This document shows, in pieces, positions 16,532-63,592 of a stretch of 64,000 bases of DNA. Made by a program: the position numbers and the translations under genes. This DNA comes from Dehalococcoidia bacterium (lineage in GTDB: Bacteria > Chloroflexota > Dehalococcoidia > Lucifugimonadales > G965248475), in assembly GCA_965248475.1 (NCBI GenBank), contig OZ252106.1, positions 1,583,640-1,647,639 on the forward strand, read 5' to 3'. Under the pieces are notes generated by a model. It saw nothing but the letters and a program-made list of their open reading frames with translations. It did not search any database and was not told where the DNA came from. Numbering within the stretch: position 1 is the first letter of the stretch; each line of letters begins with the position of its first letter.

Positions 16532-16874
16532 TCAGGCCGCCGCTCCTTTAGTCTCGACCGCCTGAGAGCTCGCCAGCGCTCGCAGGCGCTCCAGGATCAT
16601 CGGCGTTGTAGGCCAGCCCCTTAGCCCCTCCTCCGTCTGGAACAGCCGACAGCTGAACCCATACTAGTCCGCGTCCTCGGGAAACAGGTCGTTGCCGGAG
16701 ACCCGGAGGGTCGGGGGGGCCTTGAAACCGCAGCTCGTCGGCATTGGCTTGGTCCTTCACCTCGATCAGGGAGACCTCCATGTCCAAGCCGTGGAGGGTA
16801 AGGGCCTGCCTCAGGTTCTCAAGGGCCTGGTGCCAGGACGGACATCCGTCAAAGTAGAGAAGTTCTAAAACCAT
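16532..16874 (-). pseudogene. Thioredoxin-fold small protein, disrupted (G7 frameshift + in-frame TAG)
   Basis: AGGAGG-6nt-ATG 16874. MVLELLYFDGCPSWHQALENL...ELRFQG, then the frame breaks at the G7 run 16713..16719. The shifted frame gives PPTLRVSGNDLFPEDAD-TAG(16666..16664)-YGFSCRLFQTEEGLRGWPT... Confidence 0.6.
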
Positions 16875-17005
16875 AATATTCCTCCTGTCAGCCAACTCCT
16901 GCGGCCAGCGCGCGCAAGCCCGATGCGTAGTCCTGTCCAAGCTGTATCCTGGCAACGCGACGGTCCAGTTGCTGCAAGACCCGGAGGTCGCCCAAGGCCT
17001 GGGCA

Positions 17006-18145
17006 TCAGCCAGGACGGACGTAGGCCAGAAGTTGTGCCTTTTTCTCCTGGATGTTGATCAGAAGCTTGTCGAAGGAGTCGGCGAATGCCTTGAGGCCGT
17101 CGCTCAGGAGGCCATCGGTGACATGCCGCATATCTATACCGGCTGCCTCTAGCGAGTCCAGGGTGGTCCGGGCCACTGTCGTGTCCCGCTCCAGGGTTGT
17201 GTTGGCTTGGCCGTGCTCCAGGAACGCGGTTAGTGTGTCCGGGGGCACGGTGTTGACCGTATCCGGCCCGATGAGAGACTCTAGGTAGAGTACATCGCTG
17301 TAGGCAGGGTTCTTGGTGCCTGTGCTGGCCCACAGCGGCCTCTGTACCCTGGCGCCCCCAGCCTTGAGGCCGGTGAACCGCTGGCTGTCGAAGGCATCCC
17401 TGAACGCCCGGTACGCAAGTTTGGCGTTGGAGATGGCCGCCTTGCCCATGAGAGACGCAGCCTCGTTCGAGCCCTGGCTCGCCTTCCCATCCAGCATGGC
17501 GTCCACGGCGGTATCCACCCGGCTGAGGAAGAAGGAGGCGACGGATGCCACTCCGGCGAGGTCACCGCCGCCACGGGCGAGGTCCTCCAGGCCAGCTATG
17601 TAGGCCTCCATCACCTGCTTGTGTGTGTCCAGGGAGAAGATGAGTGTGACGTTGACGTTGATCCCTTGGCCGATCAGGGCGTGCACGGCAGGGATGCCCT
17701 CGGCGGTGGCGGGCACTTTGATCATTACGTTGGGGCGGTCCAACGCAGCGTATAGACGCCTGGCCTCCGCGACGGTGCCTTCCGTATCGTGCGCAAGAGT
17801 TGGACCAACCTCCAGGCAGGCGTAGCCGTCGGCACCGCCGGTGCGGTCGTATATCGGTCGGAGAAGGTCGGAGGCCCAGCGAATGTCCTCCAAAACCAGC
17901 GCCTCGTAGGTCTCCTTTGCGGTCTCCGGTGTGCTCGGGCCATCCTGGACCAGGGACAGCAGGGCCTGGTCGTAGTCGGTGCTTCCGGCGATGGCCTTCT
18001 CGAAGATCGTGGGGTTGGATGTCAGGCCGGTAACACCCTGCTCTATGAGGCGCTTTAGCTCTCCGGAGGTCAGGAGACCGCGACTAACGCTGTCGTACCA
18101 GATGGACTGTCCCAGTCTCTGGGTCTGCTGGACGGGGTTGTTCAT
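17006..18145 (-). CDS. tal: Transaldolase (long actinobacterial-type)
   Basis: [11 protein letters not shown]...[13 protein letters not shown] motifs. 4-nt overlap with the tkt stop. Confidence 0.93.
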
Positions 18146-20160
18146 GCTACCTTCTCCTGTACTAGCTGCGCGGCCTGGTTGGCCATGTGGCGGGCGGTCA
18201 ACCCGAACTGCTGATAAAGGGTCTCATAGGGTGCCGAGGCACCGAAGTGGGAGATGCCCATGGCAACGCCGTCCAGGCCGACGTACCGTTCCCAGCCAAG
18301 AGGGGTAGCGGCCTCTATGGAGACCCTGGCCCTGAGATCAGGCGGTAGGACGGCAGTGCGGTAATCCAGGGGCTGAGCGTCGAACAACTCCCAGGAGGGC
18401 ATGGATACGACACGCGCGGCGATACCGCGGCCCTCAAGGGCCTTGCCCGCTTCAAGCGCCGTGTGAGTTTCTGAGCCGGTACCTATGAGGATGACATCCG
18501 GTGTGGAGGAGGCGTCCCATAGTATGTAGCCGCCTTTTTGGACACCGGTTGCGCTGGCGAGGGTAGACCGGTCCAGCACAGGCAGGTTCTGGCGGCTGAG
18601 CACCAGGGCTGCGGGGCCGGACCACCGTTCCAGGGCCACCTTCCACGCCTCTACTATCTCGGTGGCGTCGGCGGGACGGAGCACCACCAGGTTGGGGACT
18701 GACCTGAGACCCAGTAGTTGCTCTATCGGCTGATGAGTCGGGCCGTCCTCTCCCAGGCCGATGGAGTCATGGGTAAAGATGTACACCACCCGCTGCTCCG
18801 TGAGGGCCGCCAGTCGCATGGCAGGGCGCATGTAGTCGGAGAAGATGAGGAAGGTCGCGGTGTATGGGATGATCCCGCCGTGCAGAGCCATCCCGTTGGC
18901 TATGGCGCCCATAGCGTGCTCCCTGACGCCGAAATGCATGTTGTGACCGCAGTACTCCTCAAAGCCGTAGTGCCCGTGGTCCTTGAGGAGGGTCTTGGTA
19001 GAGGGCGCCAGGTCCGCCGAGCCGCCGGTGAAGGCGTGAATTCGTGATGCGATGGTATTCATGGCCAGTCCCGAGGCCTCTCTTGTAGCGATGGGCTTAT
19101 CGCCGTCGTTGAAGAGGCGATCCAGGTCGGTGGTCCAACCTTCGGGCAGATCACCGCGCAGGTCCTCCTCAAGCTGGGTCGCCTCGTCCGGATACGCCTG
19201 ACGATAGGCCTGCAGCACAACCTCCCACTCCTGTTGACGCTGCTTGCCCAGCTCCAGGGCCTGACGGAAATGGGCGAGGGCTTCATGCGGAACTGCGAAT
19301 GGCTCGGGGTATGGCCACTCCAGCTGCTCCTTAGTAAGGCGCACCTCCTCTTCGCCCAGGGCCTCGCCGTGGGCTGAGGCTGTGCCGGCCTTATTGGGGC
19401 TGCCGTAGCCGATGGGGGTCCGGCAGATGATGAGGCTGGGGCGGTCAGCGGCACTCTGGGCCATGCGTATGACAGAGTCCACCGAATCAGGGTCCATGCC
19501 GTCAATGGGGCCCACGACGTGCCAGCCGTAGGCCTGGAACCGCTGAGCTACGTTTTCTGCGAAGGCTATATCTGTATTGCCCTCGATGGAGATGTCGTCG
19601 TCGTCGTAGAGGTATATGAGCTTGCCCAATCGTAGGGTACCCGCCAGAGAGGCCGACTCGGCTGCTACCCCTTCCTGAATGTCACCGTCGGAGACGATAG
19701 CGTAGGTGTAGTGGCTGATTATCTCGTGGTCGGGGCGGTTGTAGTGGTCCGCCAGCCACCGCTCGGCGATTGCCATGCCCACGCCGTGGGCGAACCCCTG
19801 CCCCAGGGGCCCAGTTGTCATCTCCACGCCAGCTGTCAGGCGGTACTCAGGGTGGCCTGGCGTTTTGCTCTCCCACTGGCGGAGCCGCTTGAGTTCATCC
19901 AGCGGCAGGTCATAGCCGGTGAGATAAAGGATAGCATAGAGTAAGGTATAGGCATGACCGGGAGATAAAATGAACCTGTCTCTGTCCGGCCAGTGGGGGT
20001 CGCCAGGGTTGTGAGTGAGGAACCGATCCCAGAGGACGTAGGCCATGGCGGCAGCGCCCATGGGAGTGCCTGGGTGGCCTGAGCCGGCCTGCCGCACAGC
20101 ATCCACCGCCAAGAACCGAATTGTGTTGACACAGAGGCCTTCAATGTCAGTAGTGGTCAC
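18142..20160 (-). CDS. tkt: Transketolase
   Basis: 672 aa. GSGHPG, ThDP-binding region and [18 protein letters not shown] signature. SD GGAGG before GTG 20160. Confidence 0.95.
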
Positions 20161-20204
20161 GCATCCTCCAGCACTTCATCTACCGAGGTCATATATCTAT
20201 TGTA

Positions 20205-20236
20205 CCAGCCACCCCGACCTCGGTCGGGGTGGCTGG
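20205..20236 (-). terminator. Perfect 14-bp hairpin between the grx-like gene and tkt
   Basis: CCAGCCACCCCGAC-ctcg-GTCGGGGTGGCTGG. It lies downstream of the 20266 stop on the minus strand and has no T-tract. The core CCCGAC..GTCGGG recurs in the repeat family. Confidence 0.4.
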
Positions 20237-20265
20237 TGTCACCGCCGATAAAGATTCCGTGAAAT

Positions 20266-20526: not shown

Positions 20527-21039
20527 TGGTATCAGCTCCTGTCTACACCCTTAGATGCCCGTGATGACATCGGGGTACATTTCATGGAAACGGAACATCT
20601 GGGTCAATAATATTTGCGCCCGTGAGCACTTCAGTTCCGAGGAAGTCAGGTATGCAATTGTTCTCCGGGGAGATGTCGTGGATCAACTGCGGGTTTCGGC
20701 CCGGATGATGCTGATGACGATAATGACTCCGCGACTGGAAAATGACGATCCGACTATCTCAGATGTCGAAGATTGCGTTGCTCTCCACGACAGCATCGTA
20801 TCACCCCCCCCTCCGTTGCGAATTTGCCAGAAGGCCAGGAACGGCAAATAGCAGTTTGCAATTGCATCTCGCTCGTTTCGTGGGCATCTAAACAGAGTGC
20901 GACGTGGTTTGGGCAACCGAGCACACCTTGACCGCTGTGTATTAGCGAAGCACAGCAATTCACCAGGCGGCACTGCTTTTAGACTATCGTCGGGAGCGTG
21001 TACCGGCCCGTCACCGCCGACATTCAGGAGGAGAAGAAA

Positions 21040-21555
21040 TTGAGCCAGCTGACAGAGTTCCGCACTCAGAAGGACAAATTCTTCGCGAACGACCACCACT
21101 CCCCCCTTCGACAGCAGCAGAGAGATACCTTCAAAGGTCTGGCCTACTTCGGAGAAGACTCACTACTGCACCTAGAGGTGCAGGTCGAGGAGTATTCAGA
21201 GAATCAGCTTGTGGAGATCGCCACCAGCACCGGTGACGTCCAGACTTACGAGCGATGGGGAAGGTTCACGTTCGAAGTCTAGGGAGAGGCGGCAGAGCTG
21301 ACGGTCTACAGAACTGGCCACAGCCTTTTCCTGCCCTTTGCCGATGCAACAAACGGCGCGGACACCTATGCGATGGGTCGCTACGTCGAACCCGAATCAA
21401 TAAGTGGGAACAAGATACTGGTGGACTTTAACCTGGCGTACAACCCTTACTGCGCCTATAACGAAGACTGGAGTTGCCCAATTCCGCCAGCCGAAAACCG
21501 TGTCAGTGTGCCAATTGGTGCTGGGGAGAAGGCCTTCGGGAGCTCCGCCCACTAG
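21040..21555 (+). pseudogene. DUF1684 protein interrupted by one in-frame TAG
   Basis: AGGAGGAG + TTG 21040. Track ORFs 20998..21282 and 21373..21555 share one frame. ..GRFTFEV-TAG(21280..21282)-GEAAELTVYRTGHSLFLPFADATNGADTY..VDFNLAYNPYCAYNEDWSCP is one continuous DUF1684 domain. Confidence 0.75.
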
Positions 21556-22105: not shown

Positions 22106-22394
22106 GTTTCCCCTCCTTGAAGCAGTCGGCCTTTATTACGATAGCGAGTCTGGGTGGGTAGACACTGGGTCTGAAACTGATGATTGCCCGACAGGCACAG
22201 AGAGCGGGCCTGCTAAGCTTCGACGAGCCATGTAGTAGGGCGTTCTAGAACTATATGTCCCGTTCAAGGAACTGGAGTGCCGGTATCCATAGCTTGGGTA
22301 GTCGGCCATAACCCTCTCCCATACGGGGCATTGTAGCGTGAACTGAAGGCGAGTCAAACTGAACCTGCCAGAATGCCACGAATGGAAAGTAAAG

Positions 22395-22592
22395 CTAGGA
22401 CATCGTGAGATCGGATCTGACCGATTCATGGGACACGCCATGATACCTGGCGATTGTCCGTAGGCTCTGACCCTCTTCCCGGGCCCGTTTTATGGCGACG
22501 ATATGGGCTGGCCAGAGTCTCTTGTTGGAGGCGACGCGGACGGGGGGACGCCACAGAGGGATCAAATCAGCTACGAAATAGCCCTCTTGCAC
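22395..22592 (-). other. Short HTH ORF, possible remnant of a recombinase/transposase DNA-binding domain
   Basis: IVAIKRAREEGQSLRTIARYHGVSHESVRSDL resembles Hin/IS630-type HTH. No catalytic domain follows. The surrounding region has a lower GC content. Confidence 0.3.
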
Positions 22593-22731: not shown

Positions 22732-25272
<2,541 letters not shown>

Positions 25273-25339
25273 CCCTTGCTTCTACGGGCACGCATGGGCG
25301 AGCCAGTCGAGCGTAACGGACCGGTTCAACAGAGTCCGG

Positions 25340-26149
25340 TCAGGGCGTCGCTTGATTACGGACCGCTTCAACCACTTGGCGTATGGCGTCCACCACGAGG
25401 TCTGGCCTATCGTCCTGAATCCCATGCCCGCTCCCCTCAGCTATCATGTGTGTGTCGTCCGGCGACAGAGCCGCCAGTTCTTTGTGCAGACCTACCAGTA
25501 GCTGATAGAGCTTCTCGTCCACATCGTTGGAGACACCAGGCCGATCGATATACAGAGCAGCCGAAATCACCACTAGGGGGAAGTCTCCCGGTGGCCCTAG
25601 TTCGACGTTGCCTTGAGCCTCCTCAAAACGGGAGATACGACCGCCACCAGCCTCCATGTACTGCTGCCATTCCTCTGGGGCAAGAGCCGCCTCAGCGCGG
25701 GCTGAGAAATCCTCGTGGCCGGGGTCAAGCAACACCATCCCGACCACATCCTCGGGGTACAAGTTGGCGAAGTGGGGGATCACACGTCCGCCGAAGGAAT
25801 GGCCCATGACCACATAGGGGCCTTCTATGCCCCCGGCGTCCAAAAGCGCATGCAGGTCGCGGACCATGGCATCGAAAGTATCATGGGCGGGTACTGAGCT
25901 ACTGTGGCCCTCGCCAGCCCGGTCGTAGGCGCATGCGCGGGTGAACTCGGCGATGTCAGGCTGGACGGGTCTCCAACTGGCAGAGTTGCCCATACCTCCA
26001 GCTTCCAGTACCACCGTTGGACTCCCCTCCCCCTCACAGGCGAGGTATAGCTCACGGCCATCGCCGACATCAATCAGATCTTCACTGCCACATCCCACCA
26101 GTACTACGACCAGCAGTATCGCAAGCAAGCCAGCGTGTGGCGATGTCAT
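25340..26149 (-). CDS. Alpha/beta hydrolase, probable lipoprotein
   Basis: Signal peptide + lipobox LVGC. Nucleophile elbow GHSFGG. C-terminal GSGHGIQ His motif. Confidence 0.85.
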   Translation of the reverse strand: MTSPHAGLLAILLVVVLVGCGSEDLIDVGDGRELYLACEGEGSPTVVLEAGGMGNSASWRPVQPDIAEFTRACAYDRAGEGHSSSVPAHDTFDAMVRDLHALLDAGGIEGPYVVMGHSFGGRVIPHFANLYPEDVVGMVLLDPGHEDFSARAEAALAPEEWQQYMEAGGGRISRFEEAQGNVELGPPGDFPLVVISAALYIDRPGVSNDVDEKLYQLLVGLHKELAALSPDDTHMIAEGSGHGIQDDRPDLVVDAIRQVVEAVRNQATP

Positions 26150-26165
26150 GGTTGCCTCACGCCAG

Positions 26166-26795: not shown

Positions 26796-27002
26796 ATTGT
26801 TGCCTCCTGATTCTGCTGACCTATCTACTCGGTGCCTCTAACGGCCTGGAGGCCCAGAGGCTGGCCGGAGCCGGGTATCACTCCCCTGTAGACCCCGACG
26901 AAGACCTGACATGGTAAGTTTTTGTAGATCACAGATTATAGAGCAGGCCAGCCGTCCCGGGATTATTGAGTTGGGTCTACCTATGATGAGCCCCTCCTCG
27001 GC

Positions 27003-27650: not shown

Positions 27651-28045
27651 CGTCCGGGTCTCCCGGATGCGTTCCCGCTCTAGTCTCGCTCACGTTAGTC
27701 TGTCCGTCTCCGTCCGAGTCAAGCGGCTCCACTTCTCTCAGCGCGTTACGAAGCAACGCTATCTTCTCCGCGTCACTATCAGGGTCTATCCCTGTGGGAC
27801 CTCGCCTCTAACCGCGATGCCGTAGGGGTTCAGTGAGCGACGGCCGCTATGGCAGACAGAACAGTCATCAAGCGGCGTATCCTAGGTCTCGTAAACATCG
27901 TTGAATGTCGTCATTGCTAGCGTCGAGTGACCATCGAAGATCCCACAACCTGCGGTAATCAGGGCCATAGCAACGGTCGCTAGGGCCAAGGCGATCATAT
28001 TGGCATGTCCGAGACCATGGACAGTAATGGTTGGGAGAGGTGTCA

Positions 28046-28405
28046 TCAAACTTGGGCCACCTTGCGCCTCCGTTTGACGACGCCCGCTACCGCAACAGGG
28101 ATGGCGATGGCTGGCACGATGCCGGTCCACCAAAAACAGGCTGCCACAGGCAGTGCACCTGCCGCTAGTAGAGCACCACCATTGCCCGACTGTGAGCGGG
28201 CAGAGCCCCAGGCGCCTGCTGACAACGCAGCTCCACCGATAAGCAAGACAACGGCAACTCCCAGTTCCATCCCTCGTCCGCCGACATCTACGGGTATGAA
28301 ACCTGCTAGATACAGGACGCTGCCGGCGAAACTGACAAGTGCCAAGAGGGTCGCCGCACCAAGAAAGACCACCAAAGTTACTCTCGATCCGTTCATCTGC
28401 ATCAT
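28046..28405 (-). CDS. Small 4-TM membrane protein
   Basis: The ATGA start/stop overlap with the upstream gene at 28402..28405 suggests translational coupling. Hydrophobic Gly/Ala-rich TM segments and a KRRRK tail. Confidence 0.6.
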   Translation of the reverse strand: MMQMNGSRVTLVVFLGAATLLALVSFAGSVLYLAGFIPVDVGGRGMELGVAVVLLIGGAALSAGAWGSARSQSGNGGALLAAGALPVAACFWWTGIVPAIAIPVAVAGVVKRRRKVAQV

Positions 28406-29061
28406 CCTGCTTCGCCCTCATCCGCGACAAAGAAATCTGTTGCTCCAACAGTCCGACGCTTGCTCGTCTTGTAGGCCTGGAAAAGTCCCAATAGCACCAT
28501 GAACCCGCCAATGATCGGAAGGATAACCGTCCATTGCCACGCGAAGCCGAACACGACCGCGCCCATCATCAGTGTGATGACGCCAGCCTGCGGCCTGCGA
28601 GCGAGTATGAGAGCGCCCCACATCACCGCGAGCCCGTCTACCAACAAAATCGCTGCGCCCAGGACTGGATCAGCCTCATTCATAGTCGGAGGGTGTCCCA
28701 GCACAGTGCCTGCGCTGCCGACAAGGCTGAGGAGGCCTATGATCACGGCCAGGCTGCGGAAAGCCCATCCTGCCGCTCGTGTTCTCACGCCCTCCTCCGT
28801 GTGTACGTCTCTGGCACGGATGTGTGCCAGCCGCCATATGAGGTCGTCAGGGAGACCCAGCAGCCAGCGGAGCAGCAGGTGCGTCGCCAGCGGAGGGCCA
28901 TCCCTTTGCACCGTCTCCGCTTCCTGCGATTGATCCCAGAAGTCGGCGTCGATTTCCTCGCGACGGGAGTCGCGAAGGCCTGACGGAAGACCGGCGGTAT
29001 AAAGGCGTACCCAAGCGCGCACGAAACCAACAGAGCGGGGCATGAGCCCAGTGCTACTCAT
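28402..29061 (-). CDS. Membrane sensor-like protein, paralog A (PadR-associated)
   Basis: ATG 29061 aligns with the start of paralog B. The same frame stays open upstream through PadR (see findings). The N-terminal cytoplasmic helical domain + 4 TM resembles the DUF1700-type partner of PadR regulators. Confidence 0.7.
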   Translation of the reverse strand: MSSTGLMPRSVGFVRAWVRLYTAGLPSGLRDSRREEIDADFWDQSQEAETVQRDGPPLATHLLLRWLLGLPDDLIWRLAHIRARDVHTEEGVRTRAAGWAFRSLAVIIGLLSLVGSAGTVLGHPPTMNEADPVLGAAILLVDGLAVMWGALILARRPQAGVITLMMGAVVFGFAWQWTVILPIIGGFMVLLGLFQAYKTSKRRTVGATDFFVADEGEAG

Positions 29062-29202
29062 GGGATGCCTCGCTCGGGTCGCAGAGTCGGCGTGGCGCGC
29101 GCGCTCAGTGTGGTGCTTGGCGAGTGCTGTTTCGCCGGCCATTGTCACCCGATAGAAGCGACGCCGGGGCCGGCCTTCATCAGCCGCGACCTGCGGGTCC
29201 TC

Positions 29203-29415
29203 TCAGTAGCTGTCTAGGAAGCCCACCTTCTCCAGTCGGGCCAGGGCCTTGTAAAGGGTGCCGTAGGCGGTGAGCAGCCGTGCATCGGCTCGGTCCCGCA
29301 TCTCCTTAGCGAGTAGGAAGCCGTGGGCGGCTTCGAGGCCTCTCTTCCGCAGGTCGAGGCCAGCCTCCATAATGGATGCTTCGAGTGGTACGAGAGCACC
29401 TGCTTTTCTCCGCAT
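29203..29415 (-). CDS. PadR-family transcriptional regulator, ends at a TGA on the conserved Trp position
   Basis: wHTH HGFLLAKEMRD...YGTLYKALARLEKVGFLDSY-TGA. The frame continues in-frame as EDPQVAADEGRPRRRFYRVTMAGETAL, the missing PadR C-terminal helix. Confidence 0.8.
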   Translation of the reverse strand: MRRKAGALVPLEASIMEAGLDLRKRGLEAAHGFLLAKEMRDRADARLLTAYGTLYKALARLEKVGFLDSY

Positions 29416-29421
29416 GGCGGA

Positions 29422-29451
29422 ATAATAGGAAGATATAGTCCCATTTGTCAA
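29422..29451 (-). promoter_or_regulatory. Sigma-70-type promoter giving a leaderless padR mRNA
   Basis: TTGACA (29451..29446), 18-nt spacer, TATTAT (29427..29422). ATG 29415 starts 6 nt after the -10 box and no SD is present. Confidence 0.55.
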
Positions 29452-29584
29452 GAGGGGCATCGCGTGACGGAATGCCGATCAAGGAAATGGGAGGCAGCAA
29501 ATGATGCATGGAACTTCCTGGCGCCCTCTTACGTCTTGTTAGTAAGACCAATCTCACATCACAGATTCTTACCGGGAGTTCACT

Positions 29585-29961
29585 ATGGCAATCGCAGCAA
29601 TGAAAAAGTGGCTGATACCGTTACTGACCATATCCGTTAGCCTGCTGGTGGGGGCCGCCTGTGGGGGGATGCAACAACCAGCCCTACGCCGACACCCCCG
29701 GTGACTCAAGAGTGGGAGCTGGAAAACATCCAGACGTTCGGCCCCACCGTTACGGTGTCGCTGCATATGTTTTCGGGAGTCGACGTGCAGGTGACGCTGG
29801 ACGGCAGGCAGGCCGATGAGGTCCGACCCGCCCTTCCAACAGTTGAGTACATTTTCAACGACGTGAGTGCGGGAAGGTATACGGTAGAGGTCCGGGACGT
29901 GGTCTGCTACAGCGAGACCGCCGAGGTGGCTGTGCCCACCTCGCCACCACTTTCGCCGTAG
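29585..29961 (+). pseudogene. Lipoprotein with Ig-like beta domain, frameshifted at a G6 run
   Basis: GGGAG + ATG 29585. MAIAAMKKWLIPLLTISVSLLVGAAC signal/lipobox. The frame breaks at G6 29663..29668. With 7 G it reads CGGDATTSPTPTPPVTQEWELEN..., joining track ORF 29701..29961. Confidence 0.65.
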
Positions 29962-30045
29962 CAGACGGCCCTTATCAGGAAGCTGGAAAACGAACCCGTA
30001 GCCAACCCACCCGCGTCCCTGACCCAGTACGGATACAAGGGCCAG

Positions 30046-30717
30046 GTGGTTTACTACGTACCGCCACGATGCTGCGACATATTCAGCGACCTGTACGACG
30101 ACAGCGGCAACATCATCGGCCACCCGGACGGCGGCATCACCGGCCAAGGCGACGGGCGTGTGCCGGACTTCATGGCGGAGCGAGAGGACGAAATCTTCGT
30201 GTGGAAGGACCTGAGGAGCAACGACCCAGCTTTGGTCCAGGTACCGGCCCCTATAGACAGTGTGGATATCCTGATATTGGAGAGCTTCCCGCCCCAGTAC
30301 AATGTAGTGCTAACCTCTGGCCTGCCCAACGGCTGCGCTTCATTTGCCGGTTACTACCTGAACCGTAACGACGACACCATACGTGTGGATATGTTCAACT
30401 GGAAACCGGCATCGCCTGACGTTGCGTGTACAGAGATATACGGGACAGTGGAGACCGTCATCGCATTGGGCAGCGACTTCGTCTCTGGCGAGAGTTACGC
30501 GGTGGTTGTCAACGACGTTACCAAAAGCTTTATTGCGCAGCAACAGGTGAAAGGAAACCTACGTGGGACAGGCAGTCGAAGTTACCATGGGGGGCACCAC
30601 CTACAGCGTTGCCGCAATACTAGTCGTAGCGGCCCTGTTGATCCTGGCCATAGCCGTGGCGGTAGGTGGTGTCATCGCTTACCGCAGGAAGAGGGAGGTC
30701 ACGATGGAAAAGAATGA
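30046..30717 (+). CDS. Cys-rich exported domain protein (DUF6970-like + ILESFP beta module); real 5' end lies upstream of 30046
   Basis: QYGYKGQVVYYVPPRCCDIFSDLYDDSGNIIGHPDGGITGQGDG matches my recollection of DUF6970. The conserved part starts at 29962, right after TAG and without a start codon. The 3' end is uncertain (junk-like tail after ..SFIAQQQ). Confidence 0.6.
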   Translation: MVYYVPPRCCDIFSDLYDDSGNIIGHPDGGITGQGDGRVPDFMAEREDEIFVWKDLRSNDPALVQVPAPIDSVDILILESFPPQYNVVLTSGLPNGCASFAGYYLNRNDDTIRVDMFNWKPASPDVACTEIYGTVETVIALGSDFVSGESYAVVVNDVTKSFIAQQQVKGNLRGTGSRSYHGGHHLQRCRNTSRSGPVDPGHSRGGRWCHRLPQEEGGHDGKE

Positions 30718-30907: not shown

Positions 30908-31001
30908 TACTTATGGAGGACGGCGGACTCGGCAGCTTTGCCGATGACGGGCGGGAATCAGACGCTTAGATTAGGAAGAAATATCGTCCTGGAGGTTTGA
31001 C

Positions 31002-31226: not shown

Positions 31227-31309
31227 AAACGTTGGCACAACTCGACCAGCAAGCGAACTGGTCTCACGAAATAGATATCCAGAATAGTTCCGTTGAAAAG
31301 GATAACGCA

Positions 31310-32203
31310 ATGAAAACCTGGTTGATACTACTAATGGGATTGACCCTGGCACTGGCCGCTGCCTGCGCGTCTGGCGAAGGCACCTCACCCACCCCGAACG
31401 CTGAACAGGTGATCGCAGGAACCCTTAAGGGAGCGGTGACTATAGGCCCGCTGTGCCCCATAGAGCCATGCAGTGAATCATCCGGCTACCCCTTCTCGGG
31501 CAGAGAACTTGTGCTTCAGCAGCCGGGTGGAGTGGTGCTCCAGGTCCCGCTGCAATCTGATGGCACCTTCGAGTTCGTCTTTCCCATAGGGACTTACACG
31601 GTACATATGTCGCCATGTGAGTACCTGGGCTGCCAGGCCGCCTTTCCTGTCTCCGTGGACATCATGGACGGAGAGACAACCACATTGAACATCGACATCG
31701 ACACAGGAATACGGTCTCCCGTGGGGCAGTCCGAGGCGTACGACCTGTACCAGGCCCTGCGTGCCACAGGGGTGTCCGTGAAGGTCGGCGGAGCCATCGG
31801 CCAGGTGTTCTTCAGCGTGCCGGGACAGGTACTGACAATAGACGGGACCGACGTCCAGGTGTTCGAGTACCCCGGGCCGGCCGAAGCTCAGAGCGATGCT
31901 GACCAGGTCGCGCCGGACGGGGGTTCTATTGGGCCGACCATGATCACGTGGGCTGCTACGCCCCACTTCTACAGGCTGGATAGCGTTATTGTGCTCTACG
32001 TCGGCGACGATGCGGCCGTATCTCTGCTATTGGAAGAGGCGCTGGGTGCACCATTCGCCGAGGGCGATCCGGCAATGACGAACGGGGCGCCGCCTGAAGA
32101 AGGTCAGGACGAAGAGACGTTCAGCAACCTTCTAACCCTGCTTGATGTGGAGCCGCTTCTGGCTTCTCCGGTGCGCCTTAGCAGCGAGATAATCGACTAC
32201 TAG
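31310..32203 (+). CDS. Lipoprotein with carboxypeptidase-regulatory-like beta-sandwich domain
   Basis: MKTWLILLMGLTLALAAAC signal peptide with Cys. TLKGAVTIGP...DGTFEFVFPIGTYTV resembles the CarboxypepD_reg fold. The track start at 31232 is too far upstream. Confidence 0.7.
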   Translation: MKTWLILLMGLTLALAAACASGEGTSPTPNAEQVIAGTLKGAVTIGPLCPIEPCSESSGYPFSGRELVLQQPGGVVLQVPLQSDGTFEFVFPIGTYTVHMSPCEYLGCQAAFPVSVDIMDGETTTLNIDIDTGIRSPVGQSEAYDLYQALRATGVSVKVGGAIGQVFFSVPGQVLTIDGTDVQVFEYPGPAEAQSDADQVAPDGGSIGPTMITWAATPHFYRLDSVIVLYVGDDAAVSLLLEEALGAPFAEGDPAMTNGAPPEEGQDEETFSNLLTLLDVEPLLASPVRLSSEIIDY

Positions 32204-32242
32204 AAGGGGGCCGAGGATGTAAACCCGGCCCAGGTCGTCAAC

Positions 32243-32562
32243 ATGGACAGCTGGTACGGCCTGGTCGTCGCTGCGACCGGCAGCGGGGCAGGCATGACGA
32301 TCGGAGTGATCGACTTCGTATCAGTGTCCGCAGCCCAGGAGCATTACGGGCTCGTGATGGAAGGGTTGGTGAACATGACCACGCCTATTGGAGACGCCTC
32401 TGCCGAGCTAGAGGTGAACGCCCAGGGCATTGGCAGCATGCTTGTATTCATATACGGGGCAAGGTTGTATCACTGCATACGGCACAGGCAGCGGAGGATG
32501 AGCCGCTGGTCTCCCTGAAGGGCCTGAAGGATTTGGCTGATCTCGTGATAAGCAGGCTGTAA
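32243..32562 (+). pseudogene. Hypothetical protein, frameshifted at a G4 run; in frame with the upstream gene across TAG
   Basis: After ..GSMLVFIYG the frame breaks at 32456..32459. With one extra G it reads GKVVSLHTAQAAEDEPLVSLKGLKDLADLVISRL-TAA (32560..32562). Confidence 0.5.
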
Positions 32563-46505: not shown

Positions 46506-47545
46506 CTATGTGGTCAAACCCCGACCCGGCAGTCCGGCATCCTTGAGCAAGGCTCCACGCTCCCGGCCTATCTTCCTGAGCTCCTTTGCGGCATCCCTCG
46601 ACATCTCACGCAGCTCCGAAGCAGGCCGTCCGCTCTCCAGCCACTCCCTCAACTCGTCCGCATCAAACCTGGGCAGGGACTCAGGAGAGATAGCGATGGT
46701 CGGAGGTGCGACCTGGCTCGGCACGGCGGGCAGAGGCCGGGGCCGGTTCTGATTGGGTCGCTTGAAATAGTCTCGCGGCCAGGCCAGCACCAGGTCAACA
46801 TGACCGTCCTTTTCCACCACGAGCACCGGGGTGTCCTCTCTGAGCCCGGACAGGTCTATCCTGTGCCCGCCGACGATCACCCTGGTCTCATCGTCCGTTT
46901 GAAACTCGACCATCGTGTCATCCTTGCGCACTATGATGAGGCTCACATCGGTAGCCGTCTGCACCCTGCCAGCGGTCAGATCGATAGTAATGACCTGGCC
47001 ATCTCCACCCAGAAGTTCGAATTCCGCGTGCAGCAGGTTCCCGGGCAGGTTATTCCCGATGATACGCCGCAGGTAGTTGGGCAACGGGTCCCGCTGGCGT
47101 TGCAGGGAATCGTTCGGCTGGGGACGAGGCCGTTCAGCCAGCGTGGCCTCCACAACCAACTCATCCCCGTCGCGCAGTATGGTCAAGGTCACGACGGTTC
47201 CAGGAGGCAGTTCCCGGATCGTCTGCAACCCTGCCTTGCGGTCTCCATCGGCTCGCCGTCTATAGCCGCCAGAACGTCACCCTGCTGGAGGTCTGCCTCA
47301 TCAGCGGGGCTGTCATCCTGCACACCCGCGATGACTACGCCGGACGTGTACTCGATCTCCAGGCGCTCGGCGATATTCTCGTTCAGGTTCACGACTCTTA
47401 CGCCCAGCCAACCGTGTTCGGTCTGAGCCTCTTCTTGTTGGACGGCGGGGGCTGAAGGAGCGGCGCTCCCTCCGGCGGCGGCCACCCCGACCAGGGAGAC
47501 CAGGCCCAGGACTCCAATCAGTAGGACTGCAACAAATCGTTTCAT
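46506..47545 (-). pseudogene. Secreted PDZ-domain protein, frameshifted inside the PDZ
   Basis: Signal peptide MKRFVAVLLIGVLGLVSLVGVAAA. The PDZ GWLGVRVV..SGVVIAGV..DLQQGDVLAAIDGEPMETA breaks at 47229..47231 and resumes as LQTIRELPPGTVVTLTILRDG in track ORF 46506..47228. Confidence 0.7.
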
Positions 47546-50082: not shown

Positions 50083-51011
50083 TCACTGAGTGAGGTTGGG
50101 GTATCTCTCACCCGTATCAGGCAACACCGTGACAACCACCTTGCCCTCACCCAGGCGCTGCGCAACCTGGAGTGCCGCCACTACGTTGGCTCCCGAAGAG
50201 ATACCAACCAGCAGGCCTATCTCGCGGCTCAACCGTAGGGTGGTGTCTATGGCTTCCTGAGTGGTGACGGTAACCACCTCGTCAACGATGTCTCGATCCA
50301 GAATGGACGGCACGAAGTCGGCACCGATACCGACTATGCCGTGGTCTCCCGCGCTGCCTCCATTGAGCAGCGGTGACGTGTCAGGCTCCACAGCTACCAC
50401 CAGCACCGAGTCGTTGGCGGCCTTCGGCGCCCGTCCCACGCCCGTCAGCGTCCCGCCTGTGCCGACACCGGCCACAAAGGCGTCAACCCGGCCTTGAGTC
50501 GCATCCAGTATCTCCCTGCCGTGCCCTCCTGGTGGGCTTTAGCATTGGCGGGATTGTTGAACTGATCCAACATCAGCAGACCATTATTGGAATCCAGCAT
50601 CCGTCTTGCCGCCAGGTTTGATCCATCCACACCCATGTCTGCAGGTGTCAGGTGGACCGTGGCCCCGAACCGGGCGACCAACCGCCGCCGCTCCAGGGGT
50701 ACGCCCTCCGGCATCACAATGGAGACCTGGTAGCCCTTGGCGGCACCCACTACAGCCAGGGCAACGCCCATGTTGCCTCCCGTCGATTCGATTAGGCCCA
50801 TGCCGGGCTTGAGCACGCCCCGTGCCTCAGCGTCCTCCACCATTGCCAGGGCCGCGCGGTCCTTCACGCTTCCACCGGGGTTCAGGTTCTCCAACTTGGC
50901 CAGGAGCTGCGCCGACCCAGGCGGTTCCAGGGCACGCAGCCGCACCAGGGGTGTGTTCCCTATGAGAGCAAGAATGCTATCGCTTAGAGCGTTGTCCAAG
51001 GTGCTCGCCAA
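50083..51011 (-). pseudogene. PLP-dependent cysteine synthase family protein (CysK/CysM-like), frameshifted
   Basis: GNTPLVRL, PGGSVKDRAA (PLP Lys). ..NPANAKAHQEGTA breaks at 50514..50516. The shifted frame gives (G)EILDATQGRVDAFVAGVGTGGTLTGVGR, joining track ORF 50083..50475. SD GGGAGG + TTG 51011. Confidence 0.8.
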
Positions 51012-52727: not shown

Positions 52728-54782
52728 ATGGCGAACCGGCTCAGCAAAGAGACCAGCCCCTACCTCCTACAGCACGCCAACAACCCCGTTGACTGGTACC
52801 CCTGGGGCCAAGAGGCATTCGACCGGGCACGCGCCGAGGACAAGCCCGTTCTCCTGAGCGTCGGCTACGCCGCATGCCACTGGTGCCACGTCATGGAACG
52901 AGAGTCGTTCGAGAACGAGGCAACCGCCAAACTCATGAACGACAACTTTATCGCCATAAAGGTGGACCGGGAGGAGCGCCCGGACGTGGACTCCATCTAC
53001 ATGCAGGCGGTACAGACCCAGACAGGGCGCGGCGGCTGGCCCATGACCGTATTCATGACACCGGAAGGCAGGCCATTCTTCTGCGGCACCTACTTCCCGC
53101 CCCAGGACATGCACAACATGCCCGGCTTCCCCAGTGTGCTGGAGGCCATCGCAAAGATCTATCGCGAACAGCGCGACGAGACGATAGTTTCTGCGGACCA
53201 GCTCACCGAAGAGCTGCGTGGCAGCGCGATCACGTCGCCGGAAACCGAGCCGATAACGCTGCAGGTACTGGTGCGCGCCTACCAGAGCCTGGCTCCAGAG
53301 TACGACAGCGAGCACGGCGGCTTCGGCACCGCACCCAAATTCCCACAGCCGATGGTGTTGGAGTTCCTACTGCGGTACCACGCCCGCGCCGCCGACGCCC
53401 AGGCTCTGGCTATGACCGAATTCACACTGGACAAGATGGCACGCGGCGGCATGTACGACCAGCTCGGCGGGGGGTTCCATCGCTACTCCACCGACCCATT
53501 CTGGCTTGTCCCACACTTCGAAAAGATGCTATACGACAACGCACTGCTCAGCCGTGTCTACCTTCACGCCTACCAGGCAACCGGCAACCCAGAGCATAGT
53601 CGCATCGTCGAAGAGACGCTGGACTACGTGCTCCGCGAGATGACCAGCCCGGAAGGCGGCTTCTACTCCACACAGGACGCGGACAGCGAGGGCGAGGAGG
53701 GCAAATTCTTCCTCTGGACGCCCCAGGAGATTGAGGAGGTGGTAGGCGAACGCGAAGCCGCCCCTTTCAACCTCTACTACGACGTCACGGCCGAGGGCAA
53801 CTTTGAGGGACGCACCATACTCCGCATCATCGAAGACCGAGACGATGTGGCAGAGAGCCTGGACGTCACAGGGACTGAGCTGGCAGAGATCGTCAAGGAG
53901 ACAGCCCAGAATCTGCTCGCCCACCGTCAGACCCGGGTGGCGCCAGCCAGGGACGAAAAGGTGCTCACGGCCTGGAACGGCATGATGCTCCGCACCTTTG
54001 CCGAGTCTGCCGCCACGCTGCACCGCGCCGACTACCTGGATGCGGCGGTGCGAAACGCCTCCTTCCTTCTGGACACCATGCGACCCGCTAATGGCCGTCT
54101 TCTGCGGACATACAAGGACGGCGAGGCGAAGCTGAATGCATACCTGGAGGACTACGCCCATCTTGCCGACGGCCTGCTGGCCCTGCACGAGGCCACCCTG
54201 GACATACGCTGGCTCCAGGAGGCCACTACGCTGGCCGACGCTATGCTGGAGCTGTTCTGGGACGAGGACGAGCAGGGTTTCTACGATACTGGACTCGACC
54301 ACGAGGAGCTGATCCTGCGGCCCAGGGACCTGTGGGACAACGCAACGCCCAGTGGCAGCTCCGTTGCCACGGATGTATTGCTAAGGCTGTCCATACTGAC
54401 AGGCAACCAGGAGTACAACCGCCGCGCCGCCGCAGTACTTCGCTCCATGAAGGTTGTCCTGCCCCGTGCGCCCGCGGGCTTCAGCCACTGGCTCTGCGCC
54501 CTGGACTTCCACCTGTCCACGCCCAGTGAGATCGCCATTGTCGGGCCGAGAGACGACGACGCCACCCAGGCGCTGCTGGACGAGGTGTACAGCCGCTACC
54601 TGCCAAACAAAGTCCTCACTGGCTTCGATCCCGCCCAGCCAGACGGCGCATACGAGCTGCCCCTGCTGGAAGACAAGTACATGGTGAATGACATGCCTAC
54701 CGCCTTCGTGTGCCAGAACTACGCCTGCCAGCTACCCGCCACGGAGCCACAGGCGCTGGCGGAGCAGCTTACCGAGGGGTAG
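52728..54782 (+). CDS. Thioredoxin-domain protein YyaL (DUF255 + (alpha/alpha)6 barrel)
   Basis: [18 protein letters not shown]...[14 protein letters not shown]-terminal DUF255 signature. 684 aa. Confidence 0.92.
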
Positions 54783-55034
54783 CGACCACAGTACTCTTTC
54801 ATCGCCCATCGCCTGTGATTGCGTTTGGGAGCTATCTCCGGGCGCAAGCCTATGTTGGCACACGTACCATTGCCGACTTAATATCCGTCGTAGGGGTATG
54901 ATTCAAATGTCGTTTATGATCAGCCAATGGCAAGCACCTGGCGATGTTGGAGGCCGCATGACTGGCGAAGCGTCCAGGCTCCAACCACGTAGACTGCCAC
55001 TAAGGCCAAGCAGCTCGGGGCTTGAAATAGCACT

Positions 55035-55352
55035 ATGAGCGGAATAACTGCGGGCTGGATACTGCTGGCCATTGGCGGGTCCATCGGTCTTCTAAACTTC
55101 CATCTCTCATTCACCCGATATCTCTACCACCGTCTTCGGCGACGTCGAGAGGAATACCATTTCATATCCAGGTTTCCGTTAATCGGCTCACTTCTTTGCC
55201 TGCTCTCGATCCCGTTTTTCCCCACACCATCCGTTCCACAGCTCATTGCAATAATCGCTGCGCTCGTCGATACCGCCGGGATACACTGGCTATTTGGTGC
55301 ATTTTTGTGGGATCTGTGGGACCGGCTACGTGGGACCGATTCAACCAACTAA
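55035..55352 (+). CDS. Small membrane protein encoded within the insertion after yyaL
   Basis: 105 aa, 3 hydrophobic helices. Lies between the two copies of the yyaL 3' end. Confidence 0.5.
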   Translation: MSGITAGWILLAIGGSIGLLNFHLSFTRYLYHRLRRRREEYHFISRFPLIGSLLCLLSIPFFPTPSVPQLIAIIAALVDTAGIHWLFGAFLWDLWDRLRGTDSTN

Positions 55353-55375
55353 TAGGCAACGCTGCTGGAGGACAG

Positions 55376-55480
55376 GTACATGGTGGATGACAGGCCCGCC
55401 GCCTTCGTGTGCCAGAACTACGCCTGCCAGATGCCCGCCACGGAGCCACAGGCGCTGGCGGAACACTTACCGAGGGGTAA
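55376..55480 (+). pseudogene. Displaced duplicate of the yyaL 3' end
   Basis: About 90% identical to 54677..54782. Encodes [29 protein letters not shown], then a 1-nt deletion shifts the last codons. Confidence 0.85.
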
Positions 55481-55548
55481 CAGCTATGGATGCCGGAATT
55501 ATACTCAATTGGATACTGAATAGGCCGGACTCCCGCGCCTGAGCCAGC

Positions 55549-59262: not shown

Positions 59263-59727
59263 TTACGGCGTCGCGGGCGGCGGGTTACCGTCCTCGCTAT
59301 ACGATGCGTAGTACCACCCCAGGACATGACCGTCCTTCAAGGAGTAGAGGTCTGCTCCCACAGGCAAAGGCTCCCACTTCTCCTGCGACTCGCTCCAAAC
59401 CCAGACCAGCCAGTAGTTGGGGTCCTGGCCCTCGACACCGAATATGCCCTCCACAAAGTGGCTCCGGAAGGCGGCATAGTAGGTGGCCTGGATATCCCCC
59501 TCAGTCACCAACTCCGTAAACTCATAGGCATCCATGCCCTTGGTCACCTCAACGTCCCGGAACCACTGAGGGTCCTGGCCCTCCTGCTGAATCAGCATAC
59601 TGACCTGTATGGTCTCCGTCTGTACGGCGGGCTCGTCTACGGTACACGCACTCAGGACCGAAAGGGCCACCAGAATGACCAGCGCGCCGGGGAGCAGGAA
59701 GAGCTTGACACTTCTATTGGGAATCAT
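59263..59727 (-). CDS. DUF4430 lipoprotein (transcobalamin-like corrinoid-binding domain)
   Basis: Signal + lipobox LSAC. ..DPNYWLVWVWSESQEKWEPLPVGADLYSLKDGHVLGWYY resembles DUF4430. Confidence 0.7.
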   Translation of the reverse strand: MIPNRSVKLFLLPGALVILVALSVLSACTVDEPAVQTETIQVSMLIQQEGQDPQWFRDVEVTKGMDAYEFTELVTEGDIQATYYAAFRSHFVEGIFGVEGQDPNYWLVWVWSESQEKWEPLPVGADLYSLKDGHVLGWYYASYSEDGNPPPATP

Positions 59728-59746: not shown

Positions 59747-60388
59747 CTATCTTCCTATCTTCATCTGGGCCGCTCCCCTGATCAGCAACGGAGCAAAGGC
59801 GCCAAAGAAGAGGAGGTTGCTTGAGACGTGGGCCGCCGTAAAGAAGAGTGCGCCGGGGTTGAAAAGGGCAACCGCCAGCCACCTGCTGTAGTCGGCGGAC
59901 CCGGCCATCTGCGCCCAGACAAAGCCTGTATAGGCGTTGGTAATGCCGTCGTAGACCAGGGTGCACAGCACAGCGACGGCCCCAATGCCGACATTCCTCC
60001 AACCCGGCGCAACACGCAGGTCGGACGGATCAACGAACATTCGCAGAACGGCTCCTGCACCGGCGTACACTATCTCAGCCGTCATCACGGTCACAAGCAG
60101 CGGGCCGGTAGTGGGACCCCAGGGGTTAAGCGTCCCATATGCAACCCAGGCCAGAACGGCCACAGCAGCGCCCCGACGGAAGCCCAGAGTGTAGCCGGCC
60201 ACGAAGACCAGAAGGTCGAACAGCTTGACGTTGGGGAAGCCGGTCAACGCGTAGCTGGTGGCAAGGATAGCGGCCACGAACGCCAGAATAGTCCCGGCGT
60301 CCACCAGCACTCGTGGCGGGTAAAGATAGCGACGCGGCCTAGCGACCGTGGTAAGCGCCTGCTGAGTCCAAATGATTGGGTCTGTCAA
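59747..60388 (-). CDS. ECF-transporter S-component-like membrane protein (candidate corrinoid transporter)
   Basis: GGAGGTG-6nt-TTG 60388. Six TM. First gene after the cobalamin riboswitch. Confidence 0.7.
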   Translation of the reverse strand: MTDPIIWTQQALTTVARPRRYLYPPRVLVDAGTILAFVAAILATSYALTGFPNVKLFDLLVFVAGYTLGFRRGAAVAVLAWVAYGTLNPWGPTTGPLLVTVMTAEIVYAGAGAVLRMFVDPSDLRVAPGWRNVGIGAVAVLCTLVYDGITNAYTGFVWAQMAGSADYSRWLAVALFNPGALFFTAAHVSSNLLFFGAFAPLLIRGAAQMKIGR

Positions 60389-60452: not shown

Positions 60453-60723
60453 CAAAAAACCCGGCTCTACTCAGGCCGGGTATTCACCAGTAATCGGCAG
60501 CTCGTGGGGCGTTGACGAAAAGCTACCGGGGCGTCCTCTGTATGGCGCAGAGTAGAACTCACGCTACCCAGGTAGGTCTCCTGACTCACGGATCGTCACC
60601 CGCCGACGCCTTCCCATCCCGACAGCCAGGACAGTGGCATGATGCCAACAGGCTCCCCGTTTACAGTGGCGCAACCGTGGCGGACTCACACCGCCTTCCC
60701 TTTTCAGCCGGTACAGCACCTGG
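60453..60723 (-). promoter_or_regulatory. Cobalamin (B12) riboswitch with intrinsic terminator
   Basis: P1 CCCAGGU..ACCUGGG. Core AAAAGGGAAGGCGGUGUGAGUCCGCCACGGUUGCGCCACUGUAAACGGGGAG. GCCACUG..GGGAAGGCG. B12 box GAGUCAGGAGACCUACC. Terminator CCCGGC-9nt-GCCGGGUUUUUU at 60479..60453. Confidence 0.9.
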
Positions 60724-60765
60724 GAGCTTCCAATATTCGATTGTTAAGGAATCTCGGATCGGGGC

Positions 60766-60795: not shown

Positions 60796-60813
60796 ACCGC
60801 GGACCTGCCGCTT

Positions 60814-61271
60814 TCACAACCCCTTTGTCTGACGCCACTCGATAACATGCAGGGTATGCTCCGGGTACTGGCCGTAGGTATCGAGCCTCAGGCGACGCCG
60901 AAAGCGAGTCTCGGTGACGAAATGGTGCGCCGGTACCGTGGCGAGGAAGGTCACCAGCCGTGCGTGTGTCTCAGAGGACCGACTTTGAACATCTGCCAGC
61001 GACATCTCCCAGTAACGGTGCCACCGGCCTTCGTTGAAGGCGTCGATCCCGCCGTAGGTGACGTACCGGACCGTACGTCTGGCCTGCATGATGACGGGTA
61101 GGCTGCAAGCGCCTCCTCCTCCCACGTGGCGACATGGCCCAGCAGGTCTTTGACGGACCAGTCGCCAACCACGCCAGGCTCTTGAAGGGCCGTCGCAGAC
61201 AGGCCGCGGGAGGCCAGACCAAAGGCCTGCCATCCGGTGTCAATGGGTCTCAGAAGCTGGTCTAGGTCCAT
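60814..61271 (-). pseudogene. DinB/ClbS-like four-helix-bundle protein, frameshifted
   Basis: GDWSVKDLLGHVATWEEEALAA (track ORF 60951..61271) continues as LPVIMQARR...IDAFNEGRW...YPEHTLHVIEWRQ (track ORF 60814..61233) after a 1-nt shift near 61101. Confidence 0.7.
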
Positions 61272-61306
61272 GATGCGCCGCTATCGTGAATTAGGTACGT
61301 TTAAGC

Positions 61307-62390: not shown

Positions 62391-62401
62391 GGGAGGCAGG
62401 G

Positions 62402-62884
62402 TTGAGCTGGCTTCGCCCTCTGGATGTAACAGTCACCTTTGAGGACCGCACCTACAAGCTGGGCGAGTCCATACAGGTGGCGGTGGAGTTGAGCGCTCGG
62501 GATAGTGTCGAAGTGAGGGCAGGCAGCATAAGCCTGATATGCGACGAGCGGTGGGTGGACCTGTGGACCGTTCAGGTGTCCGCCCACAGGTGGGGCCGGG
62601 TATCCGATTCCGGGATATCAAGAGGACTGCCACAGGCTTCGATAACAAAGCGCGGGTCCAAGGTGAACCATGACCACTACTACCCCAGCAGCGCCCAGCT
62701 CCTGGGTAACGAGCGGCTCAGCCCGGATACGCCGTACCGATACGACGCCAGGTTGGACATACCAGTGAAGGGTCCGCCCCACGCGTATGATGCCACAGTC
62801 ACATGGCAGCTGGTAGCCACATTTGACGTCGCCCGCGCCAGGGACGTTACGGAAAGTCGCACCATCACGGTGGCACTGATCTAA
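62402..62884 (+). CDS. Hypothetical protein (beta-rich)
   Basis: GGGAGG-5nt-TTG 62402, just after the upstream stop. 160 aa. No family recognised with confidence. Confidence 0.5.
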   Translation: MSWLRPLDVTVTFEDRTYKLGESIQVAVELSARDSVEVRAGSISLICDERWVDLWTVQVSAHRWGRVSDSGISRGLPQASITKRGSKVNHDHYYPSSAQLLGNERLSPDTPYRYDARLDIPVKGPPHAYDATVTWQLVATFDVARARDVTESRTITVALI

Positions 62885-62914
62885 CGCTCCAGGTATCCAG
62901 TAAAGGAGATCGCT

Positions 62915-63451
62915 CTGGAAAAACAGAACAGGGTCCAGTGGGTCTACTCCTCAGCCAGCAACCGGGAGCTTCAGCAGCGATACGACGAGTGGGCGTCCAC
63001 CTACGACACCGACCTGGAGAACGACTTCGGTTACGTAGGGCCGTGGGTGGCCCCAGACCTATTTGCCAGGCATGTTGCCACAGACGCATCTGTGCTGGAC
63101 GCCGGAGCCGGTACTGGACTGGTCGGCAAGCTGCTGGCGGAGAAAGGCTATGGGCAGATCGATGCAATGGACCTGTCGGAAGGGATGCTGGAGGAGGCGC
63201 GCAAGACCGGGGCGTACAAGGCGTTCCACCAGATGGTGATGGGCGAGCGCCTGGACTTTCCAGACGGTGCCTATGACGCTGTTGTCGCCATAGGCGTCCT
63301 TACCATCGGCCACGCGCCTGCAAGCTCCCTTGACGAACTGGTGCGTGTGACCAGGCCGGGCGGGCAGGTCCTGTTCTCCATGCGCCCTGACATCTACGAA
63401 AGCGACGGCTTCAAGGACAAGCAGTCGCAGCTGCAGTCCGACGGCGCATGA
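62915..63451 (+). CDS. Class I SAM-dependent methyltransferase; CTG start; frame continues past TGA to 63541
   Basis: AAGGAG-6nt-CTG 62915. No ATG/GTG/TTG occurs before the conserved YDEWASTYDTDL..GYVGP N-terminus. Motif I VLDAGAGTGLVG. After TGA 63449..63451 the frame reads QFVEVTDPFRPLPKGEPEAYSQIYVFRQT-TAA. Confidence 0.8.
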   Translation: MEKQNRVQWVYSSASNRELQQRYDEWASTYDTDLENDFGYVGPWVAPDLFARHVATDASVLDAGAGTGLVGKLLAEKGYGQIDAMDLSEGMLEEARKTGAYKAFHQMVMGERLDFPDGAYDAVVAIGVLTIGHAPASSLDELVRVTRPGGQVLFSMRPDIYESDGFKDKQSQLQSDGA

Positions 63452-63592
63452 CAGTTCGTAGAGGTTACCGACCCGTTCAGGCCTCTGCCCAAGGGTGAGC
63501 CAGAGGCCTATTCCCAGATCTATGTTTTCCGGCAGACATAAGCCGCCAGACCCGGGCAAGCGCATTCATTACTGCATGCCAGAGGTGACACC

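Follow-up and report, generated by a model that had tools for sequence, protein, structure and literature searches.

The 64,000-nucleotide stretch of DNA analyzed here (positions 1,583,640 to 1,647,639 of contig OZ252106.1, assembly GCA_965248475.1; hereafter the window) belongs to the 2.4-Mb chromosome of a marine, SAR202-like Dehalococcoidia bacterium, and roughly 10 of its approximately 65 genes (about 15%) are damaged by premature stop codons, 1-nt frameshifts, or truncation. Most likely, these are genuine pseudogenes of recent origin, formed while the lineage loses genes that it can dispense with. The phenomenon as such is ordinary; its local density is unusually high. An earlier reading made from the sequence alone (the original prediction) had listed six in-frame stops within conserved genes and offered recent pseudogenization, consensus errors, and read-through or suppression as candidate explanations. 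All six stops are present in the window DNA at the coordinates given there, and homologs or domain models bridge each of them, so that the downstream frame does continue the conserved domain as had been claimed. Missed at that stage were six 1-nt frameshifts, a stop-loss, a probable start-loss, a 5'-truncated gene, and a duplicated fragment. At each of the six stops and six frameshifts, intact homologs cover both flanks of the lesion as one continuous protein, and four of the genes carry two to three lesions each.

The heaviest damage is found in a DUF6970/ORF11_beta lipoprotein pseudogene (29585..30717, + strand), which is hit three times. First comes a frameshift in a G6 run (29660-29671), which separates the frame of the signal peptide from that of the remaining protein. 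It is followed by a TGG>TAG change (29959-29961) at an invariant tryptophan; eight homologs (313-319 aa) bridge this stop with W in every case, as the original prediction had suggested for this position, and all of them end in ...AQ. The third lesion is a stop-loss (TAA>CAA, 30541-30543; the relative L081 has TAA at this site) that lengthens the open reading frame (ORF) to 30717. Close by on the same strand lies a second lipoprotein pseudogene (31310..32562), interrupted by TAG at 32201-32203 and by a 1-nt deletion after a G run (32453-32464), beyond which the C-terminus goes on in another frame. Its stop, initially listed only as a possibility, is real: five homologs (the full-length ones 417-421 aa) bridge it with K, and the DNA of a sister species reads TAC AAG AAG there, so that AAG>TAG has replaced a lysine codon that persists in the sister. 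At the deletion, the sister has GGGGG or GGGGA vs GGGG in the window.

The METTL27-like class I methyltransferase pseudogene (62915..63541, + strand) carries a TGG>TGA change at 63449-63451. Ten homologs (208-220 aa) cover 97-98% of the read-through product, all with W in this column. CTG occupies the start position (62915-62917), 6 nt after an AAGGAG, where the homologs have Met, and a start-loss (A>C) is probable. The second TGA (29203-29205) lies in a PadR-like regulator ORF (28402..29460, - strand), whose Pfam PadR match (residues 44-114) crosses the stop at residue 86; the column holds Y, Y, and W in the PDB homologs. Both TGAs had been placed on tryptophan columns, and the alignments bear this out for 63449 and, with the tyrosines included, for 29203. 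The PadR ORF runs without a stop into a downstream membrane-protein ORF in the same frame (28402-29460, - strand), either as a natural fusion or as another stop-loss. A partial paralogue of this adjoining membrane protein is located 1.4 kb away (27003-27650, - strand), with 27368-27633 being 85% identical to 28788-29053.

Two shorter genes complete the set of six stops. The small thioredoxin-like pseudogene (16532..16874, - strand) combines TAG at 16664-16666, where the closest homologs have E, with a +1 frameshift in a C7 run (16713-19, within 16711-16721). The continuity claimed past this stop therefore holds only once the frameshift 50 nt upstream, which the original prediction did not see, is corrected; the corrected 113-aa reconstruction is 76% identical to a 113-aa homolog over residues 2-113, matches 412 proteins at E<=1e-10, and has its stop bridged by homologs of about 100-113 aa. 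In the DUF1684 pseudogene (20998..21555, + strand), TAG at 21280-21282 falls on residue 100 of a Pfam DUF1684 match that spans it (E 1.9e-43, residues 49-183), and the PDB homologs 2lnu and 2lok align straight across with D or G in what is a variable column. No Pfam family was found for the thioredoxin-like gene, for the lipoprotein gene at 32 kb, or for a region at 27.7-28.1 kb described below.

Further broken genes contain frameshifts or truncations without an in-frame stop among the six. In the secreted PDZ-domain protein pseudogene (46506..47545, - strand), the intact 371-aa ortholog of the related locus L003 gives two tblastn high-scoring segment pairs (HSPs) in different frames, which meet at a 1-nt frameshift at 47223-47233. 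A cysteine synthase pseudogene (cysK-like, PALP; 50083..51011, - strand) has lost one nucleotide at 50512-50525, with GG for the expected GGG; the intact L005 ortholog likewise splits into two tblastn HSPs in different frames, and 11 relatives flag the lesion in a uniform screen. The halves of a DinB-like pseudogene (60814..61271, - strand) lie in different frames on either side of a 1-nt frameshift in a C run (61090-61100), and the corrected version yields a Pfam DinB_2 match (28.1 bits, cutoff 24.8) that spans the junction. A flavin reductase remnant (22732..23060, - strand) abuts the region upstream of ligA and is 5'-truncated: its Pfam Flavin_Reduct match (E 1.9e-22) covers only profile positions 32-128 of 153, with stops directly upstream. 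Finally, a duplicated C-terminal fragment of the YyaL/DsbH-like gene next to it (55356..55523, + strand) is a gene remnant in which 55362-55479 is 92% identical to 54663-54781.

Further evidence that these genes are decaying comes from a sister species, in which their loss or independent breakage is directly visible. Its contigs, found via cluster look-ups, are separate, independent assemblies (JGI samples 3300003702 and 3300060026; European Nucleotide Archive contigs named k119/k141) and share 83-88% nucleotide identity with the window, with synteny largely kept; they are the closest sequences found. A 6.8-kb deletion there (window 25235-32024) takes the PadR gene, the DUF6970 gene, and two thirds of the second lipoprotein gene, and joins ligA to the 3' remnant of the latter in a single 848-aa ORF (L124:5156-7702, L125:5156-7702). 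The PDZ gene is mostly deleted, and the DinB region (60800-61305) has no counterpart. The sister's cysK is also dead, through a different frameshift and an in-frame stop (GIS*GAN): it is in frame at the site of the window's frameshift, and the sister contig L085 breaks at other positions than the window does. In total, the state in the sister is known for six of the window's broken genes, and all six have been lost or broken there, compared with 7 of 38 intact genes (Fisher p ~2e-4), and 31 genes that are intact in the window are intact on the sister contigs too. The stops themselves are absent from relatives: besides the AAG at 32201 in sister DNA, tryptophan stands at 29959 and 63449 and glutamate at 16664 in the closest homologs, with the stops at 21280 and 29203 compared with distant homologs only.

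Conserved genes in the same stretch are spared, as no lesion was found in about 45 kb of them, including ligA, tkt, tal, zwf, leuB, the electron transfer flavoprotein (ETF) genes, and selD. When window and sister are compared, the ratio of nonsynonymous to synonymous substitution rates (dN/dS) amounts to 0.13-0.20 in cysK and to 0.25 in what is left of the lipoprotein gene, with most intact genes at 0.04-0.17; such low values indicate that the decay is recent. In two more distant relatives, transposase genes of the IS3 and IS256 families flank or interrupt the DUF6970-lipoprotein pair (L081:8548-9764 and 11290-12186; L082:10743-11845), and the locus is therefore unstable across the clade.

Lesion density in the window is above background. 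In a uniform tblastn screen for internal stops or frame changes, backed by at least two other loci, 80 related loci yielded 11 candidate lesions in 982 kb of DNA covered by homology, compared with 3 in 18 kb for the window. For two of these three, the test depended on loci that had been fetched as holders of broken-gene homologs, and without these loci the rate comparison consists of the cysK frameshift and the separately demonstrated PDZ frameshift.

Of the three explanations offered at the outset, recent pseudogenization is thus the one supported by the frameshifts, the stop-loss and start-loss, the multiple lesions per gene, the unconserved stops, and the losses in the sister species. The lesions would then be present in the organism's DNA and not only in its assembly, and the genes would presumably be non-functional. 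Decay may have begun when selection was relaxed on accessory genes, namely the thioredoxin-like, DUF1684, flavin reductase, PadR, two lipoprotein, PDZ, DinB-like, and methyltransferase genes and the cysK copy. Spontaneous mutations could subsequently have gone unpurged, comprising stop-creating substitutions (TGG>TGA or TGG>TAG in half of the cases), the disappearance of a stop and of a start codon, and 1-nt slippage in G/C runs. Deletion would finally clear the wrecked genes, a later stage that may be what is seen in the sister species. The G-to-A bias that had been proposed fits three of the stops (TGG>TGA or TGG>TAG) but not 32201 (A>T), 16664 (probably G>T), the stop-loss (T>C), or the start codon (A>C). 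A methylation-motif or Dcm-type hotspot for the TAGs, three of four of which lie within CTAG, was considered and dropped, as no single C>T mechanism explains the ancestral codons that could be resolved (TGG, AAG, and probably GAG).

Several points weigh against genuine decay. The source contig is a long-read assembly, and each lesion is taken from its consensus sequence. All six frameshifts fall within G/C homopolymer runs (2-7 bases), which are also the typical place of long-read consensus errors. Two versions of the thioredoxin-like ORF (P0404 and P0405), one with C7 and one with C8, are on record from a 2,400,261-bp contig; homopolymer lengths in the assembly may therefore be unstable, although the pair could also stem from a gene present twice in the genome, from a revised assembly, or from a circular overlap left untrimmed. 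The TAG at 16664 is present in both versions. The sister-state comparison does not extend to the thioredoxin-like, DUF1684, and methyltransferase genes. A clustering simulation for several lesions per gene gave a marginal result (P ~0.06), and a test that looked for surplus substitutions in intact genes, at their invariant columns, was too weak statistically to tell error from its absence.

These points lead to the best-surviving alternative, according to which some or all lesions, above all the 1-nt homopolymer indels, are assembly or consensus errors and the real genes are intact. We consider this unlikely, yet it draws on the location of every frameshift in a short G/C run, on the two thioredoxin-like ORFs that differ by one C in a C run and stem from a contig of the same size, and on the fact that the window was compared with sequences no closer than 83-88% identity. 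Errors would be expected in proportion to length, whereas the roughly 45 kb of conserved genes contain none. Moreover, the broken genes are those deleted or independently broken in the separate assemblies of the sister species; random assembly errors have no reason to hit genes that relatives have independently discarded, and this association therefore disfavors error. The eight substitution lesions are of mixed type (three G>A, one A>T, one probable G>T, one T>C, one A>C, and one that could not be assigned), and several lesions occur together in the same short genes. As few random substitutions create stops, six nonsense errors would, by our estimate, require far more errors per base than a polished assembly can be expected to contain. 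Consensus error, one of the candidates originally named, may account for homopolymer frameshifts but fits the overall pattern poorly.

Far less probable is recoding, in which UGA would be read by tRNA-Trp, UAG by a suppressor or a pyrrolysine-type system, or either stop by context-dependent read-through, so that full-length protein would be made. UGA is the leakiest stop codon and can be misread by tRNA-Trp. Both TGAs and one TAG fall on tryptophan columns, and the selenocysteine (Sec) UGA in selD shows that UGA recoding machinery exists in this genome. However, TAG and TGA end most genes both in the window and in 80 relatives. As the original prediction had stated, both still terminate many genes here: 36 TAG, 21 TGA, and 4 TAA close the 61 ORFs of a crude set, and 10 TAG and 6 TGA close the 16 genes with homology-supported ends. 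The replaced residues are inconsistent across the six stops (W, W, W/Y, K, E, and a variable one), and relatives share none of the stops. The window encodes a single tRNA, tRNA-Gln(UUG), and a check for suppressor tRNAs with CUA or UCA anticodons, covering the window and about 1.6 Mb of fetched loci, found such an anticodon only in tRNA-Sec. In comparison with shuffled sequences, none of the six stops is followed by RNA of significantly higher stability (z -1.84 to +1.65). Four of the six stop-carrying genes are also frameshifted or lack a start or stop codon, and since frameshifts occur in the same genes, reading through the stops cannot rescue them. Context-dependent read-through or suppression, the remaining candidate, is accordingly unsupported.

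Specific recoding systems fare no better. The variant codes in which UGA specifies Trp or Gly (codes 4 and 25) resemble the window in its two in-frame TGAs on tryptophan columns, the only ones found besides the selD Sec codon; yet TGA is a regular terminator here (21 of 61 ORFs, 6 of 16 homology-supported genes), TGG serves as the codon for Trp elsewhere, GC content is about 60%, and the affected genes carry other lesions. Amber suppression and pyrrolysine systems share the presence of in-frame TAGs inside conserved genes (four in this case), but TAG is the most frequent terminator, the columns are W, K, E, and variable (D/G), and neither pyl genes nor a CUA tRNA were found within the window. 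Programmed frameshifting is dismissed by the orthologs L003, L005, and L124/L125 and by database homologs, which are single-frame at all sites tested.

The window's own selD offers a direct comparison with selenocysteine insertion. Its UGA (49872-49874, - strand) is in frame within a conserved gene, like the two TGAs, but occupies the catalytic Cys/Sec position (MQQDAVRLTALASCAG*ASKFSP; 'SCAG*ASKFSP'), whereas both TGAs align with Trp; the earlier claim that neither is the Sec-UGA of selD is therefore correct. The sequence downstream of the two TGAs (z +0.34 and -0.56 vs shuffles) forms no stable hairpin of the type of a selenocysteine insertion sequence (SECIS). A tRNA-Sec(UCA) gene lies in the syntenic locus of the relative L005 (L005:580-677).

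TAG is normally the rarest stop codon in bacteria, and the original prediction was correct in remarking on its unusual frequency as a terminator. This frequency has no connection with the broken genes and characterizes the clade as a whole: among 919 gene ends supported by homology in the 80 Dehalococcoidia loci (L001-L080), TAG is the commonest terminator with 411 occurrences (45%), followed by 327 TGA and 181 TAA. Being the commonest terminator in both window and clade, TAG cannot be generally reassigned. This clade-wide preference is an oddity in its own right and may deserve separate study. A search for literature on SAR202 pseudogenes and on TAG usage in Chloroflexi returned nothing relevant.

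Gene decay of the kind favored here has known counterparts. Pseudogenes that arise by nonsense mutation and homopolymer frameshift have been described in the reductive evolution of recently host-restricted bacteria such as Mycobacterium leprae and Sodalis. The window resembles them in its homolog-bridged stops, 1-nt indels, several lesions per gene, restriction to dispensable genes, a deletion stage in relatives, and insertion sequence elements nearby in relatives. It differs from the long-dead pseudogenes of M. leprae in its low dN/dS (0.13-0.25), which indicates very recent decay, and from both systems in that the density is derived from one 64-kb window and that it concerns an uncultured marine member of the Dehalococcoidia. 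Features of this kind are well known, and only the local density and the paired snapshots in the sister species are of some interest. A broader interpretation, which we put forward tentatively and regard as possible rather than probable, is that the window shows an uncultured marine SAR202-type lineage caught in the act of genome reduction, with about 15% of local genes freshly inactivated and matching deletions in its sisters. In a weaker variant of this interpretation, the two TGG>TGA alleles would persist through near-cognate misreading by tRNA-Trp, which would preserve part of their function.

For annotation, the consequence is that gene callers will split or truncate about 10 genes in the window, and metabolic reconstructions should count them as lost, cysK being an example. 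The case also cautions that in-frame stops on tryptophan columns are not by themselves evidence of a variant genetic code. If the lesions are real and their density holds genome-wide, this Dehalococcoidia lineage would be in active gene loss, and a genome-wide pseudogene load would provide a natural time series of gene loss in free-living or loosely associated marine bacteria. The paired snapshots, in which genes are point-inactivated in the window and deleted in the sisters, could help to study the tempo and mutational spectrum of marine genome reduction.

The window has a GC content of about 60%, and its genes include those for pentose-phosphate enzymes, LigA, ETF, two family-III CoA transferases, LeuB, and the Sec-containing SelD. 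In a LigA scan of genome contigs, the best relatives were metagenome-assembled genomes of uncultured Dehalococcoidia/SAR202 with at most 71% identity, and synteny was poor around the broken genes. A single scan of metagenome contigs with the DUF6970 gene as query returned no contig of the same species, the nearest match being at 57%.

Several minor features accompany the broken genes. Another gene in decay may be present at 27690-28050 (- strand), where a signal of lipoprotein type (MALITAGCG), the motif CSVCH, and DSDGDG-type repeats are spread over two frames with several in-frame stops and no Pfam match. The end of a small ORF at 22136-22441 (- strand) resembles the helix-turn-helix of transposases (Pfam HTH_38, E 2.7e-5, a match that does not reach the family cutoff); this ORF lies where a window-specific block (6.9-23 kb) meets ligA and may be the remnant of a mobile element. 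A cobalamin riboswitch (60554-60737, - strand; Rfam RF00174, 114 bits) precedes genes for a membrane protein (59747-60388) and a small protein (59263-59727), which probably form a B12 uptake operon. The sister species carries a separate deletion of about 2.8 kb (L122:12985-14075), in which the C-terminal part of glucose-6-phosphate dehydrogenase and the N-terminal part of the family 15 glycoside hydrolase (GH15) are lost, both of which are intact in the window. Between the YyaL-like and MOT1-family transporter genes (54783-55548), the window has only a small membrane ORF and the duplicated YyaL fragment described above. Four genes occupy this interval in the sister species, encoding a peptidase M55, an enoyl-CoA hydratase, a DAO oxidoreductase, and a 68-aa ORF.

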